NCBI RefSeq assembly: GCF_030013205.1 | Contig: NZ_CP122648.1 | DNA from: Escherichia coli | GTDB lineage: Bacteria; Pseudomonadota; Gammaproteobacteria; Enterobacterales; Enterobacteriaceae | Length of the DNA stretch: 64,000 nucleotides | Direction: 5' to 3' (one strand) | In this document: positions 1 to 51,140 of the stretch, piece by piece | How the letters are laid out: the number at the start of each line of letters is the position of its first letter | How positions within the stretch are numbered: position 1 is the stretch's first letter | Notes under the pieces: model-generated | Told to the model about the DNA's origin: nothing | Database searches by the model: none | What the model saw: only the letters and a program-made list of their open reading frames with translations | Program-made: the position numbers and the translations under genes

Positions 1-490
1 AGTTTTTGCGCCAAAATACCGAAGACAAGTGTTCTACAGAGAGAAGCGTAGAGCAATAGGCAGTATTTTGAGAAAGCTGTGTGAGTGGAAAAGCGTACGG
101 ATTCTTGAAGCTGAATGCTGTGCAGATCATATCCATATGCTTGTGGAGATCCCGCCCAAAATGAGCGTATCCGGCTTTATGGGATATCTGAAAGGGAAAA
201 GCAGTCTGATGCTTTACGAGCAGTTTGGTGATTTGAAATTCAAATACAGGAACAGAGAGTTCTGGTGCAGAGGGTACTACGTCGATACGGTGGGTAAGAA
301 CACGGCGAAGATACAGGATTACATAAAGCACCAGCTTGAAGAGGATAAAATGGGAGAGCAGTTATCGATTCCCTATCCGGGCAGCCCGTTTACGGGCCGT
401 AAGTAACGAAGTTGGATGCAAATGTCAGATCGTGTGCGCCTGTTAGGGCGCGGCTGGTAAGAGAGCCTTATAGGCGCATTTGAAAAACCT
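1..490 (+). mobile_element. IS200 copy, partial (left part lies off the window); right boundary approximate
   Basis: Contains 5'-truncated IS200 tnpA; right end placed before hairpin at 488-506 from recalled IS200 length, not seen directly. Confidence 0.6.
2..406 (+). CDS. tnpA: IS200 transposase TnpA (Y1 HuH family), 5' end truncated by window edge
   Basis: Frame open to window start (VFAPKYRRQVFYREKRRAIGS...); HuH motif HIHMLVEIPP and catalytic-Tyr region RGYYVDTVG; near-identical to recalled IS200 TnpA. Confidence 0.85.
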   Translation, partial: VFAPKYRRQVFYREKRRAIGSILRKLCEWKSVRILEAECCADHIHMLVEIPPKMSVSGFMGYLKGKSSLMLYEQFGDLKFKYRNREFWCRGYYVDTVGKNTAKIQDYIKHQLEEDKMGEQLSIPYPGSPFTGRK

Positions 491-543
491 CCGGCTATGC
501 CGGAGGATATTTATTTCAGTTTCGCGGCGGGTGGCATCAGCAA

Positions 544-570
544 TAAAGTTTCCCCCTTCCTTGCCGATAA
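544..570 (+). promoter_or_regulatory. Sigma-28 (FliA) promoter of the tar-tap-cheRBYZ operon
   Basis: TAAAGTTT (544-551), 11-nt spacer, GCCGATAA (563-570); matches the sigma-28 consensus, about 30 nt upstream of tar. Confidence 0.8.
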
Positions 571-8250: not shown

Positions 8251-10321
8251 TCTGGCCGCGATGCTGCGCCTGCCCGCAAACCTGAAATCGACACAATGGC
8301 AGATCCTTGCCGGACCGATTTTGATCTTGCTGATTTTGTCGATGATGGTGCTGCCATTGCCTGCATTCATTCTCGACCTGCTGTTTACCTTTAATATCGC
8401 CTTGTCGATCATGGTGTTGCTGGTGGCGATGTTTACCCAGCGCACGCTTGAGTTTGCTGCGTTTCCGACGATTCTGTTGTTTACCACGTTGTTGCGTCTG
8501 GCACTTAATGTGGCTTCAACCCGTATCATTTTGATGGAAGGGCATACCGGCGCGGCGGCGGCTGGGAAGGTGGTCGAAGCGTTCGGTCACTTCCTCGTTG
8601 GTGGCAATTTCGCTATCGGTATCGTGGTGTTCGTCATTCTCGTGATCATCAACTTTATGGTCATTACCAAAGGTGCCGGGCGTATTGCGGAAGTGGGCGC
8701 GCGCTTTGTTCTCGATGGTATGCCGGGTAAGCAGATGGCGATTGACGCCGACCTTAACGCCGGATTGATTGGTGAAGATGAGGCGAAAAAACGCCGCTCC
8801 GAAGTGACTCAGGAAGCCGATTTTTACGGTTCAATGGACGGGGCAAGTAAGTTTGTTCGCGGCGATGCCATCGCCGGGATCCTCATCATGGTCATAAACG
8901 TTGTCGGTGGGTTGCTGGTCGGCGTGCTGCAACATGGCATGAGCATGGGACACGCCGCGGAAAGTTATACGCTATTGACCATTGGCGACGGTCTGGTGGC
9001 ACAAATTCCGGCGTTGGTGATTTCTACCGCCGCGGGGGTCATCGTTACGCGTGTCAGCACCGATCAGGATGTTGGCGAGCAGATGGTGAATCAGCTTTTC
9101 AGTAACCCAAGCGTTATGTTGTTAAGCGCCGCCGTGCTCGGTTTACTCGGCCTGGTGCCTGGAATGCCGAACCTGGTATTTTTGCTGTTCACTGCCGGAT
9201 TGCTGGGACTGGCCTGGTGGATCCGCGGACGTGAACAAAAAGCGCCTGCCGAACCAAAACCAGTAAAAATGGCAGAGAATAATACCGTTGTCGAAGCGAC
9301 GTGGAACGATGTACAACTGGAAGATTCTCTGGGAATGGAAGTGGGTTATCGACTGATCCCGATGGTCGATTTCCAGCAGGATGGTGAGTTGTTGGGCCGT
9401 ATACGCAGTATCCGCAAGAAATTTGCCCAGGAGATGGGGTTTCTGCCGCCGGTGGTGCACATTCGTGACAATATGGATCTGCAACCTGCCCGCTATCGCA
9501 TTTTGATGAAAGGCGTAGAGATTGGCACTGGCGATGCCTATCCGGGGCGCTGGCTGGCAATTAACCCAGGTACCGCTGCCGGGACGTTACCTGGTGAGGC
9601 GACCGTCGATCCGGCATTTGGCCTGAATGCTATCTGGATTGAAAGTGCGCTTAAAGAACAGGCGCAGATTCAGGGGTACACCGTGGTTGAGGCCAGCACG
9701 GTGGTGGCAACGCATCTTAACCACCTCATTAGCCAGCATGCCGCAGAGCTGTTTGGTCGTCAGGAGGCGCAACAGCTGTTGGATCGCGTCGCCCAGGAGA
9801 TGCCAAAGCTGACGGAAGATCTCGTTCCTGGCGTCGTCACGCTCACCACACTGCATAAAGTGCTGCAAAATCTCCTCGATGAAAAAGTACCGATTCGCGA
9901 TATGCGCACCATTCTCGAAACGCTGGCGGAACATGCGCCCATCCAAAGCGATCCACATGAATTAACCGCCGTCGTGCGCGTGGCGTTGGGACGGGCGATT
10001 ACCCAGCAGTGGTTTCCTGGCAAAGATGAAGTCCATGTTATTGGCCTTGATACGCCGCTGGAACGTTTGTTACTACAGGCGTTGCAGGGTGGGGGCGGAC
10101 TGGAGCCAGGGCTGGCGGATCGTTTGCTGGCGCAAACTCAGGAAGCGCTATCCCGTCAGGAGATGTTGGGTGCGCCGCCTGTATTGTTGGTGAACCACGC
10201 GCTGCGACCATTATTGTCTCGTTTCCTGCGCCGCAGCCTGCCGCAGTTAGTGGTGCTGTCGAATCTGGAACTATCTGATAACCGACATATCCGCATGACG
10301 GCGACAATTGGCGGTAAATGA
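8243..10321 (+). CDS. flhA: Flagellar export apparatus protein FlhA
   Basis: 692 aa from ATG 8243 (MSNLAAMLRL); overlaps flhB end by 8 nt; six-frame ORF starts at 8168. Confidence 0.95.
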   Translation: MSNLAAMLRLPANLKSTQWQILAGPILILLILSMMVLPLPAFILDLLFTFNIALSIMVLLVAMFTQRTLEFAAFPTILLFTTLLRLALNVASTRIILMEGHTGAAAAGKVVEAFGHFLVGGNFAIGIVVFVILVIINFMVITKGAGRIAEVGARFVLDGMPGKQMAIDADLNAGLIGEDEAKKRRSEVTQEADFYGSMDGASKFVRGDAIAGILIMVINVVGGLLVGVLQHGMSMGHAAESYTLLTIGDGLVAQIPALVISTAAGVIVTRVSTDQDVGEQMVNQLFSNPSVMLLSAAVLGLLGLVPGMPNLVFLLFTAGLLGLAWWIRGREQKAPAEPKPVKMAENNTVVEATWNDVQLEDSLGMEVGYRLIPMVDFQQDGELLGRIRSIRKKFAQEMGFLPPVVHIRDNMDLQPARYRILMKGVEIGTGDAYPGRWLAINPGTAAGTLPGEATVDPAFGLNAIWIESALKEQAQIQGYTVVEASTVVATHLNHLISQHAAELFGRQEAQQLLDRVAQEMPKLTEDLVPGVVTLTTLHKVLQNLLDEKVPIRDMRTILETLAEHAPIQSDPHELTAVVRVALGRAITQQWFPGKDEVHVIGLDTPLERLLLQALQGGGGLEPGLADRLLAQTQEALSRQEMLGAPPVLLVNHALRPLLSRFLRRSLPQLVVLSNLELSDNRHIRMTATIGGK

Positions 10322-10713
10322 TGAGAACCTTATTAGCAATATTATTGTTTCCGCTGCTGGTGCAAGCCGCCGGGGAGGGGATGTGGCAGGCGAGTAGTGT
10401 GGGCGTTACGCTGAATCACCGTGGTGAGTCGATGTCGTCAGCGCCTCTTTCTACTCGACAACCTGCTGCAGGATTGATGACGCTGGTGGCGTGGCGTTAT
10501 CAGCTTATCGGCCCGACACCTGCAGGACTGCGGGTTCGCTTGTGTTCGCAATCTCGTTGTGTCGAATTAGAAGGGCAAAGTGGAACCACCGTGGCCTTTT
10601 CCGGTATACCGGCGATAGAACCGTTGCGATTTATCTGGGAAGTACCTGGCGGTGGGCGGTTAATTCCGCCGCTAAAGGTACAACGGAATGAAGTGATTGT
10701 GAATTATCGTTAA
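10321..10713 (+). CDS. flhE: Flagellar protein FlhE
   Basis: 130 aa from second ATG (MRTLLAILLF); ATG at 10318 is an alternative start; signal peptide. Confidence 0.9.
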   Translation: MRTLLAILLFPLLVQAAGEGMWQASSVGVTLNHRGESMSSAPLSTRQPAAGLMTLVAWRYQLIGPTPAGLRVRLCSQSRCVELEGQSGTTVAFSGIPAIEPLRFIWEVPGGGRLIPPLKVQRNEVIVNYR

Positions 10714-10718
10714 TGATA

Positions 10719-10752
10719 AAAAAGCCGATGTCTGCCATGACATCGGCTTTTG
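10719..10752. terminator. Bidirectional rho-independent terminator between convergent flhE and argS
   Basis: aaaagccgatgtc-tgccat-gacatcggctttt hairpin flanked by A and T runs. Confidence 0.8.
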
Positions 10753-10765
10753 CCGTATAACGCGA

Positions 10766-12499
10766 TTACATACGCTCTACTGTCTCAATACCCAGCGTAT
10801 CCAGACCCAGTTTCAGCGTCTTCGCCGTCAGTTGTGCCAGTTTCAGACGGCTGTTACGCACTTCTTCGTTTTCTGCGCTGAGGATCGGGCAGTGCTCGTA
10901 GAAGCCAGAGAACAGACCAGCCAGATCGTACAGGTAAGCACACATCACATGCGGCGTGCCTTCACGGGCAACCACGGTGAGGGTTTCTTCAAACTGCAGC
11001 AGGCGAGCTGCCAGTTGCGCTTCACGATCTTCACGGATGATAACCGGAGCTGCAGCCAGTTGCTCTTCGTCAATTTCTGCTTTACGGAACACGGACAATA
11101 CACGCGTGTATGCATACTGCATGTATGGCGCGGTATTACCCTCAAACGCCAGCATGTTGTCCCAGTCGAAGATGTAGTCCGTGGTGCGGTTTTTGGAGAG
11201 ATCCGCATATTTCACCGCACCAATACCAACCGCGTTAGCCAGTTTTTCCAGCTCGTCGGCTGGCATATCCGGGTTCTTTTCTGCCACCAGACGACGTGCA
11301 CGCTCCAGGGCTTCATCCAGCAGATCGGCCAGTTTCACTGTACCACCCGCGCGGGTTTTGAACGGTTTGCCGTCTTTGCCCAGCATCATGCCGAACATGT
11401 GGTGTTCCAGCGGTACGGATTCCGGTACATAGCCTGCTTTACGGACGATAGCCCACGCCTGCATCAGGTGTTGATGCTGACGGGAGTCGATGTAATACAG
11501 CACGCGATCGGCATGCAGTGTTTCATAACGATATTTCGCACAGGCGATATCAGTGGTGGTGTAGAGATAGCCACCATCTTTCTTCTGAATGATCACGCCC
11601 ATCGGTTCGCCTTCCTTGTTTTTGAACTCATCAAGGAATACGACGGTCGCGCCTTCACTTTCTACTGCCAGACCTTTGGCTTTCAGGTCCGCCACGATAC
11701 CCGGCAGCATTGGGTTGTAGAGACTTTCACCCATGACGTCATCGCGGGTCAACGTCACGTTCAGACGATCGTAGGTGATCTGGTTCTGCGTCATGGTGAT
11801 GTCGACCAGTTTGCGCCACATCTCGCGGAAATATTCGTCACCGCTTTGCAGTTTGACTACGTAGTTACGTGCACGCTCGGCAAACTCTTCATCTTCGTCG
11901 TAATGCTTTTTCGCATCGCGGTAGAAACCTTCAAGGTCAGCCAGCTCCATTTCACCGGCGTTTTCTTGCTGCTGCTTTTCCAACCACGCAATCAGCATAC
12001 CGAACTGAGTACCCCAGTCGCCGACGTGGTTCGCGCGAATCACTTTGTGACCGAGGAACTCCAGAGTACGCACTGCCGCGTCACCAATAATGGTAGAGCG
12101 CAGGTGACCGACGTGCATCTCTTTCGCCACGTTCGGAGCGGAGTAGTCAACCACAATGGTCTGTTTTTCTGGCGTAGCAACACCGAGACGATCGGACGCC
12201 AGCGCCTGCTGAACATGATCAGCCAGGAAGGCTGGATCAAGAAAAATGTTGATAAAGCCTGGACCGGCGATCTCAACTTTGCTGGCGATACCGTTAAGAT
12301 CCAGATGAGTCAGCACCTGCTCTGCTAATTGTCGCGGTGCCATACCCAGTTTTTTAGCAACTGCCATCATGCCGTTAGCCTGATAGTCGCCGAACTGAAC
12401 TTTTGCTGACTGACGAACCTGCGGTTCGCAATCCGCAGGCGCGCCTGCCGCAATCATGGCCTGACGGACTTTTTCTGAGAGAAGAGCCTGAATATTCAC
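10766..12499 (-). CDS. argS: Arginine--tRNA ligase
   Basis: 577 aa; class I aaRS with HVGH motif ([14 protein letters not shown]). Confidence 0.97.
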
Positions 12500-13285: not shown

Positions 13286-14041
<756 letters not shown>

Positions 14042-14087
14042 TTTTTACCGTTGCATCATGTCGCCCAATATGATGCTTGCTCGTACC

Positions 14088-14120
14088 AGGCCCCTGCAAT
14101 TTCAACAGGGGCCTTTTTTT
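14088..14120 (+). terminator. Rho-independent terminator downstream of cutC
   Basis: aggcccctg-caatttcaa-caggggcc followed by a T7 run. Confidence 0.8.
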
Positions 14121-18009: not shown

Positions 18010-18015
18010 TAATCT

Positions 18016-43382: not shown

Positions 43383-43545
43383 TTCCGCTCTCTGGATAGC
43401 CTGAAGTTGACTATTTCGGGCTATCCAGAACCGCACAGCCATTTGAGCAGGCTGATTTTCTCTGTCTGCATAACATTCGATATCCGCGCCATTACCTGTC
43501 ATCATGTGACTGCTCCCCGCCCTGTCGGGTGAGGCTTCCCACTTC

Positions 43546-44715
43546 TTAAGCCGCAACCGTCTGTGTGACGGATTTACGCTGGCCTCCATGGGCAGAAACG
43601 ACGAGTCCCGCCGCTTGTAATTCCAGTATGCCCTTGCGTTTGATGTTGAGCGCCGCGTTGATATCGCGGTCATGTTCAACTCCACACTCTGGACACTGCC
43701 AGATGCGCTTATGTAATGGCATCTCCGACATTTTGTGACCGCAGCAGTGGCAGGTCTTCGAACTGGCGAACCATTGATCCAGTTTCACCAGATGCACACC
43801 TTTCTCTGTTGCTTTGTATTCCAGTTTTGTGATGAATCCAGACCATCCAGCATCGCCTATCGCACGAGCCAGATGGTGATTTTTCATCATATTTGCCGTT
43901 TTCAATGTCTCGACAATTACCGCTTGGTTTTCGTCAACAATTGCGCGAGATAACTTGTGCTGGAAATCGGCACGGGCACTGGCTACCCGTTCGTGAACGG
44001 CTGCAAGTTGTATTCTGGCTTTGCGCCTGTTTGCGCTCCCTTTTTTCTTACGGGACAGTGCTTTCTGCTTCCGGCGCAGGTTGCGACTTGCATTGATTAG
44101 GTGGCGGGGACTGGCAATTTTATTGCCGTCCGATTTGATGACAAAATGCGCCAGCCCCATATCCAGCCCTGTCACATTTGATATCAGTGCGGGCTTTGCC
44201 GGCGCTTCCATCCCGTCGTCACAGAGTAACGACGCGTAGTATTTCCCGGTTGCGCTGCGGCTCAACGTGATACTTTTCAGCATTCCCGTAATTTCACGAT
44301 GTAAACGCGCCTCAATCGGCAAGATTTTCGGTATTTTTATCGCACCATCAAGGACTTTTATGCCAACACAATGATAGCTCGATTGTCTGCCGTGTTTACT
44401 TTTAAAGGTTGGTTTACCTGCTTTCAGTTTCGGATTGAAAAAGTTAGAAAAAGCCACGTCGAGGTTAATTACCGCCTGCTGCAACGCAATAGAATCATAT
44501 TCTTTAAGCCATCCATACCGGCGGGATTTCTTCGCCACTGCAAGCAGTGGTTTGAGGTCTTTACGCGGGTTTAAATTTACGCGGTGCCGCTGGTAAGAAT
44601 GTTTCTTGATATGCAGAGCTTTGTTGTACGCAAAACGCACTGCACCGAACTGGGCGTTGATAAATTCAGCCTGTTCTGGTGTCGGGTAGATGCGTACTTT
44701 TGTTGCTCTTAACAT
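43546..44715 (-). CDS. tnpB: IS605-family TnpB (RuvC-like RNA-guided endonuclease, OMEGA effector)
   Basis: 389 aa; RuvC-I GLDMGLAHF, RuvC-II AVIVETL, zinc finger CHCC...CPEC, RuvC-III HDRDINAALNI; looks intact. Confidence 0.85.
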   Translation of the reverse strand: MLRATKVRIYPTPEQAEFINAQFGAVRFAYNKALHIKKHSYQRHRVNLNPRKDLKPLLAVAKKSRRYGWLKEYDSIALQQAVINLDVAFSNFFNPKLKAGKPTFKSKHGRQSSYHCVGIKVLDGAIKIPKILPIEARLHREITGMLKSITLSRSATGKYYASLLCDDGMEAPAKPALISNVTGLDMGLAHFVIKSDGNKIASPRHLINASRNLRRKQKALSRKKKGSANRRKARIQLAAVHERVASARADFQHKLSRAIVDENQAVIVETLKTANMMKNHHLARAIGDAGWSGFITKLEYKATEKGVHLVKLDQWFASSKTCHCCGHKMSEMPLHKRIWQCPECGVEHDRDINAALNIKRKGILELQAAGLVVSAHGGQRKSVTQTVAA

Positions 44716-44771
44716 AATCAGCGCTCATTGATATAATGCTTTTATTTTAACACTTTAGGTGAATATATCAA

Positions 44772-45197
44772 TTGAGTAATCATGATGATTTACTGGCGGG
44801 ATTTCTCCGCAAACGACACAGTGTCAGTAAGCTGGTTGTGCACCTTATTTTTACGACAAAGTATCGACGCAAACTATTCGACAGTCAGATGATCGCTCAG
44901 TTGCGTGAGGCTTTTGGCTCCGCTGCGGCAAAGCTTGAATGCGAAATTATTGAGATGGACGGGGAGCCAGACCATGTACACCTGCTGGTTGCCTACCCGC
45001 CAAAACTGGCGGTCAGTGTGATGGTCAATAATTTAAAATCGGTATCATCACGTTTGCTACGCCAGCAGAACGCGCATTTACGTATGCAGAGTAAAACGGG
45101 GCTTTTGTGGTCGAGATCGTACTTTGTCTGTAGCACCGGAGAGGCAACGATTGAAACGCTCAGAGCCTACGTTCAGAGTCAGTCAACACCTGATTGA
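44772..45197 (+). CDS. tnpA: IS200/IS605-family transposase TnpA (Y1 HuH)
   Basis: 141 aa; HuH motif HVHLLV, catalytic-Tyr region WSRSYFVCSTGEA; first in-frame start is TTG, so start uncertain. Confidence 0.8.
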   Translation: MSNHDDLLAGFLRKRHSVSKLVVHLIFTTKYRRKLFDSQMIAQLREAFGSAAAKLECEIIEMDGEPDHVHLLVAYPPKLAVSVMVNNLKSVSSRLLRQQNAHLRMQSKTGLLWSRSYFVCSTGEATIETLRAYVQSQSTPD

Positions 45198-45326
45198 TCT
45201 TTAAAGCCCTGCGGGCTTTTCGCCTTATATCCCCGCCCGCATTGGGCGAGGGTTTACGGCGTTTTTCGCTAAGCAATGACTACCCTGTTTCGCTTGCATC
45301 TCCGGTGAGTTTTGCCACCCTTATAA

Positions 45327-50899: not shown

Positions 50900-51140
50900 A
50901 ACATTTAAGCTGATGGCCACCGCGCTTTTTATTGACCATTTTGCACGCAAACTGGAAAACCTGGCGTCGTCATCTATTCTTAAAGGGCAAGGCAACTAAG
51001 CCTGCATTAATGCCAACTTTTAGCGCACGGCTCTCTCCCAAGAGCCATTTCCCTGGACCGAATACAGGAATCGTGTTCGGTCTCTTTTTATCTGTTAAAA
51101 GCCAGAAGCATTCCCTTCGCTGACTTTATAGTCAACCATA
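50870..51140 (-). ncRNA. ryeA: Antisense small RNA RyeA (SraC) overlapping sdsR; ends approximate
   Basis: Known antisense partner of SdsR at this locus; 3' end assigned to the 50864-50899 terminator read on the minus strand; 5' end not determined. Confidence 0.4.
50987..51089 (+). ncRNA. sdsR: Sigma-S-dependent small RNA SdsR (RyeB)
   Basis: gcaaggcaactaagcctgcattaatgccaac...gaatcgtgttcggtctcttttt matches the SdsR sequence as I recall it; sigma-S-like -10 ctattcttaa just upstream; intrinsic terminator at 3' end. Confidence 0.7.

Follow-up and report, generated by a model that had tools for sequence, protein, structure and literature searches.

In Escherichia coli K-12, the convergent genes argS and flhE are separated by two small genes. 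The order in MG1655 is argS (b1876), yecV (b4778), yecT (b1877) and flhE (b1878), and the stop codons of argS and flhE lie 784 bp apart. The first of the intervening genes, yecV, has only 14 codons (14 aa) and lies on the opposite strand; the second, yecT, encodes a protein of 162 aa that matches the Pfam family LprI/DUF1311 (PF07007, E=1e-17). The GC content of this cassette is 38–40% (about 39% in the MG1655 spacer), compared with 51–57% in its flanks. For argS, the K-12 spacer has a terminator stem of its own, GCCTGATC...GATCAGGC; another long hairpin lies between yecT and flhE. In K-12, BglJ-RcsB activates yecT, whose expression is also moderately de-repressed when hns and stpA are mutated (PMC3950696). 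This regulation is the subject of the sole substantive paper that our literature search on yecT returned; none of the titles and abstracts listed deals with a presence/absence polymorphism.

A second class of described systems concerns how transcription ends between genes that face each other. Passages of a preprint that draw on Ju et al. 2019 (bioRxiv 10.1101/2022.10.23.513370) state that convergent gene pairs of E. coli often share a bidirectional termination site, and that collisions between RNA polymerases may help termination at such convergent sites (same preprint). The bidirectional terminators described there are single stem-loops flanked by an A-tract and, on the opposite side, a T-tract. 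Here we compare both systems with the flhE-argS junction of a 64-kb stretch of E. coli DNA, which we refer to as the window (Table 1).

A 52-bp junction in place of the K-12 cassette

The original prediction held that flhE and argS converge in the window across 52 bp with no yecT-like gene between them, and stated that K-12 carries yecT (b1877) at this place. The ORF list and Pfam confirm the gap exactly as given in Table 1, and a tblastn search of YecT over the 64-kb window returns only noise. The statement on K-12 was also correct: the MG1655 interval is 784 bp rather than about 50 bp, and it holds yecV in addition to yecT. Coding capacity for either protein is likewise absent elsewhere in the 64-kb window, where the best tblastn hits of YecT and YecV (E = 7.1 and 1.7, respectively) are at the level of noise.

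Table 1. Positions of the features discussed in the text; cargo positions are numbered within the named locus.
Feature	Position	Strand	Remarks
IS200C transposase gene, 3' part	1-509		Pfam Y1_Tnp; inserted between cheW and tar
Rfam C0465 sRNA match	481-554	-	adjoins the IS200C end
flhE	10321..10713	+	last gene of the flhBAE flagellar operon; Pfam FlhE PF06366, E=3e-41
flhE-argS spacer, short (empty) allele	10714..10765	convergent	52 bp; without yecV and yecT
Hairpin, predicted intrinsic terminator	10720..10751	-	consensus terminator scan and fold
argS, arginine--tRNA ligase	10766..12499	-	577 aa; Pfam tRNA-synt_1d, DALR_1, Arg_tRNA_synt_N
MicL sRNA, within cutC	13813-14120	+	at its expected place
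torZ-cmoB junction	18011-18013	convergent	without the REP-like palindromes of K-12
IS200/IS605-type element	43506-45268		1,763 bp; in the yebE-ptrB spacer; K-12 without it
tnpB	43546-44715	-	OrfB_IS605 and Cas12f1-like TNB domains
tnpA, Y1 transposase	44772-45197	+	
RyeA/SdsR sRNA pair	50949-51093		at its expected place
flhE-argS cargo, locus L008	4394-7920		
flhE-argS cargo, locus L010	4394-7473		
flhE-argS cargo, locus L020	4394-6466		
flhE-argS cargo, locus L022	4394-7424		

The ends of the two genes fix the limits of the spacer. The flhE stop codon, TAA, occupies 10711-10713 and the argS stop codon 10766-10768. At the other end of flhE, the mechanical ORF (10318..10713) begins one codon before the second ATG, at 10321, which is the start annotated in identical RefSeq sequence (130 aa), where the gene bears the name flhE; argS is likewise annotated in matching genomes. 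The last codons of flhE read CGT TAA TGA (10708-10716) in the window and CGC TGA in K-12. In E. albertii they read CGG CAG TGA, and in a diverged Escherichia lineage deposited as E. coli SCPM-O-B-8794 (hereafter L002) they read CGC CAA TGA, which gives one extra residue in each. The FlhE terminus thus varies by one codon among alleles and species.

The window and K-12 arrangements have in common the flanking genes, their convergent layout and an identity of 97–98% in the flanks, and they differ in everything that lies between: 784 bp with yecV, yecT and two hairpins in K-12, against 52 bp with one unrelated hairpin in the window. Homology ends at the flhE stop codon and restarts three bases ahead of the argS stop codon, leaving 39 bp of the window and 770 bp of K-12 unaligned at the junction. 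These limits were defined by the ends of BLAST segments and by direct reading; a MAFFT alignment of the spacers misplaced part of flhE. Because the 39 bases do not form a part of the K-12 spacer and the argS stem is a different one (GCCGATGTC in the window and GCCTGATC in K-12), the difference is one of replacement of the whole spacer and not of an internal deletion.

This comparison bears directly on an alternative account, in which a K-12-like ancestor recently lost yecV-yecT by a deletion in one lineage, leaving the short spacer. Two points speak for a deletion: K-12-like long alleles form the majority of complete genomes (see below), and AT-rich genes that are small and have no known function tend to disappear easily. 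However, the 39 bases are no subset of the long spacer and the stem is a different one, the tblastn search detects no remnant of yecT in the window, and E. albertii shares this short sequence, as does a lineage whose argS is only about 93% identical, which makes the sequence older than E. coli itself. We therefore regard the recent deletion as largely refuted and as very unlikely to explain the junction.

At the scale of the whole window, the sequence is collinear with K-12 at 97.2–98.2% identity with four structural differences, and its first 13,600 bases show 0 mismatches to E. coli ETEC4079, an isolate from pig faeces in Belgium. The further statement of the original prediction, that the window does not come from K-12, is borne out by the identity values, the structural differences and the match to ETEC4079 over 13.6 kb.

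The survey of the window also brought up several features that are separate from the flhE-argS junction (Table 1). The IS200C insertion at the cheW-tar junction is present in 4 of the 5,426 complete E. coli genomes, the exact match being ETEC4079. The element between yebE and ptrB carries its transposase gene and tnpB on opposite strands. In K-12, two REP-like palindromes that together span 133 bp (1954416-1954548) lie between the convergent genes torZ and cmoB; at this place the window has one short hairpin only and thereby presents a second minimal convergent spacer of the flhE-argS kind.

The hairpin of the short spacer

Folding and the terminator scan agree that the 52-bp spacer contains one hairpin only, as had been proposed. 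It begins 7 nt past the flhE stop codon and finishes 15 nt short of the argS stop codon. The core stem, GCCGATGTC paired with GACATCGGC (10724-10732 and 10739-10747), comprises 9 bp, including 6 G-C pairs, and closes a loop of 6 nt; with a four-pair A-T (A/U) extension the stem reaches 13 pairs. The + strand folds with a minimum free energy of -25.4 kcal/mol (z = -6.0) and the - strand with one of -24.1 kcal/mol (z = -4.5), and 0 of 200 shuffled sequences fold as well. On the - strand, in the direction of argS, the stem is followed directly on its 3' side by TTTTTT, and it is on this strand only that the terminator scan makes a call. Judged by its form, the hairpin with its T6 tract would be a textbook intrinsic terminator of argS. 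On the + strand, in the direction of flhE, the tail is TTTT followed by G and the scan makes no call.

How does this hairpin compare with the bidirectional terminators described for other convergent genes of E. coli? Like them, it is a single stem-loop flanked by an A-tract and a T-tract. Unlike them, it has a T-tract on the flhE side that is short and unconserved: the window and E. albertii have the tail TTTT, L002 has CTTT, and TGTT is found in E2348/69, an ST648 strain and FDAARGOS_1255, the three other aligned short alleles of E. coli. Because the + strand tail is short (T4), and mostly TGTT in the other short alleles, a role in the flhE direction is less certain; the hairpin may still stop flhBAE transcription, although the case for it as an flhE terminator is the weaker one. 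This weakens the description of the hairpin as a bidirectional terminator: the T6 tract and the scan call agree on the argS direction, and the flhE direction offers a T4 tract that the scan leaves uncalled.

Comparison among short alleles shows which parts of the structure are kept. All six aligned short alleles have the A6/T6 run unchanged, and the core stem is kept in five of the six, FDAARGOS_1255 having one substitution in the right arm. The loop, on the other hand, is variable among other E. coli strains, L002 and E. albertii. Stems are conserved and loops vary in the terminators of both the short and the long allele, which is the pattern to be expected of functional hairpins. We also considered a dispersed repeat of the REP/BIME type and rejected it: the 24-nt core of the hairpin is single-copy in the 64-kb window, even with 3 mismatches allowed.

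The loop is also where another possibility has to be weighed, namely that a small gene or sRNA lies hidden in the 52-bp spacer and functionally replaces yecV or yecT. The idea draws on a mechanical ORF of 35 codons (10631..10738, - strand) and on the precedent of yecV, which in K-12 is a very small ORF at the same site. But the ATG of the 35-codon ORF sits in the hairpin loop and its frame runs antisense through flhE; nor is the ATG conserved, as the loop TGCAAT in E2348/69 and FDAARGOS_1255 turns it into ATT. With a threshold of E<=1, an Rfam search returns no family within the spacer or next to it, and no promoter-like site was found in 10300-11100. We consider a hidden replacement gene extremely improbable.

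Distribution and age of the two alleles

The prediction suggested that presence or absence of yecT be followed through the pangenome. In the complete E. coli genomes, the short junction is found in 1,782 of 5,426 (33%) at a coverage of at least 80%, and a match to the K-12 spacer in 3,642 (67%), 3,554 of which have at least 80% coverage. The two sets add up to 5,424 of the 5,426 genomes, which makes this a clean two-allele site in a collection that, like complete-genome collections in general, carries a heavy sampling bias. The difference had been described as strain-specific; it is indeed one of presence and absence, but rather than being specific to a strain it is an old, lineage-wide polymorphism of two alleles at 33% and 67%, both of which also occur in other Escherichia species (see below). 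In a few long alleles, the cassette contains an IS1. Separately, about 150 complete genomes match the flhE-argS query only in part, for example over argS alone, a pattern suggestive of deletions that removed flhE or the flh region.

Named carriers of the short allele include Nissle 1917, Ecol_AZ159 (which we take to be an ST131 strain), E2348/69, an ST648 strain and an ST69 strain; named carriers of the long allele include K-12 derivatives, E24377A, O157:H7, a B-strain derivative and O55:H7. By the phylogroups established for these few strains, the short carriers fall into B2, D and F, whereas A, B1 and E comprise the long carriers. Judging from this handful of named strains, the alleles would appear to be split by phylogroup. 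Within E. coli, the short junction is 96.7–100% identical over 121 bp. The presumed B2/D/F strains (Nissle 1917, E2348/69, ST131, ST69 and ST648) share with the window the empty site, the stem and the flanks, and they differ from it in loop bases; the three other short-allele strains aligned have TGTT where the window has TTTT.

One genome per species was surveyed with an FlhE scan followed by tblastn, and both alleles were found outside E. coli. E. albertii and L002 have the short spacer, and both share with the window the pattern TGATAAAAAAGCCGATGTC...GACATCGGC...CATAACG(C/T)GATTACAT. Their junctions differ from that of the window in a loop that is 3 nt longer and in the extra flhE codon (CAG or CAA) before TGA. 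The argS gene of L002 is 93.1% identical to both the window and K-12, and its flhA-flhE region is about 90.5% identical to E. coli. With a distance like that of the cryptic Escherichia lineages, L002 is probably a separate species-level lineage and not E. coli sensu stricto. The presence of the same short sequence in E. albertii and in this lineage with an argS of about 93% identity implies that the short allele predates E. coli.

The long allele is found in Escherichia sp. E1V33 and in E. whittamii, with YecT proteins 98% and 96% identical, respectively, to that of K-12. Compared with K-12 at the DNA level, the identities in E1V33 are 94.5% for the cassette, 93.8% for argS and 93.6% for flhA-flhE; in E. 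whittamii they are 91.8%, 93.9% and 91.7%. Because divergence is about the same in the cassette as in its flanks, the cassette has been resident for about as long as those lineages have been separate. On these sequence comparisons, both alleles are old.

Could two alleles of this age have been maintained by selection, balanced or niche-dependent, instead of being sorted neutrally among lineages? An LprI-type periplasmic YecT may, for example, bring a benefit in some host niches and carry a cost in others. Each allele is found in at least three species-level lineages, the divergence of the cassette matches that of its flanks, and both alleles stand at intermediate frequency in E. coli, all of which would fit such a scheme. 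However, one old insertion followed by vertical descent along deep phylogroup branches predicts this pattern equally well, the frequencies come from collections with strong sampling bias, and yecT has no known phenotype in the literature we found, where substantive work deals with its regulation only. Selection is thus an unlikely explanation for the persistence of the two alleles.

Proposed origin of the cassette and apparent recurrent use of the junction

We consider it highly probable that flhE and argS of Escherichia flank an old two-allele site, that the window has the empty allele, and that the long allele is an ancient cassette that took the place of the whole spacer. According to this explanation, the single GC-rich hairpin of the short allele would end argS transcription and probably, with less efficiency, flhBAE transcription as well. 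In the long allele, a 784-bp AT-rich cassette would have been swapped in for the entire spacer, bringing with it its own argS terminator, the 14-codon yecV, yecT as a periplasmic member of the LprI/DUF1311 family, and the hairpin between yecT and flhE. The cassette would be horizontally acquired DNA that was in the genus before E. coli diversified; old DNA of this origin fits the low GC content together with repression by H-NS/StpA and activation by BglJ-RcsB. The lineages of E. coli would then have inherited one or the other allele, or swapped alleles when the conserved genes on either side underwent homologous recombination.

The direction of the change is a matter of the ancestral state. 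The FlhE scan returned no identifiable loci of E. fergusonii, E. marmotae or E. ruysiae, and distant Enterobacteriaceae are unusable as an outgroup because the content of their site is unrelated; for these reasons we infer, rather than observe, that the empty site is original and that the cassette is an ancient insertion into it. A plasmid-borne yecT was considered and rejected, the close matches in the plasmid collection being chromosome-size or large replicons or a doubtful 5-kb Klebsiella oxytoca record. The other matches to YecT in that collection are LprI proteins of about 32% identity, in Variovorax and Sinorhizobium only.

The same convergent junction hosts accessory genes in other Enterobacteriaceae, with a content unrelated to yecV-yecT (cargo loci in Table 1). 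Citrobacter, Enterobacter and their relatives have an MFS_2 transporter and a GH88 glycosyl hydrolase in the flhE-argS spacer, Salmonella has a GH88 protein and a class B penicillin-binding protein paralogue, and one Citrobacter has that paralogue alone; some Enterobacter and Lelliottia have a spacer of about 60 bp with a different hairpin. The literature equates PBP2SAL with STM1910. The Salmonella paralogue is probably this PBP2SAL/STM1910, which would place that protein at the flhE-argS site. The range of contents suggests that the junction is a recurrent insertion site for accessory genes. A stronger reading would join this recurrence to selection: a selected trans-species polymorphism, older than E. 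coli, at a junction that repeatedly captures envelope-related cargo across the Enterobacteriaceae (yecT in Escherichia, the PBP2 paralogue in Salmonella, GH88 with a transporter elsewhere). We find this reading unlikely, at about the same level as selection on the Escherichia alleles. The difference at the flhE-argS site is an ordinary accessory-gene polymorphism, and one that is already visible in public annotation.

In practice, the short junction is a quick marker that the window is neither K-12 nor one of the named long-allele strains (B, E24377A, O157:H7, O55:H7), and beyond typing its importance is small. For those who seek to assign roles to yecT and yecV, it is useful to know that much of the species can dispense with both genes. 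The flhE-argS site also provides a tidy case of whole-spacer replacement between conserved convergent genes.
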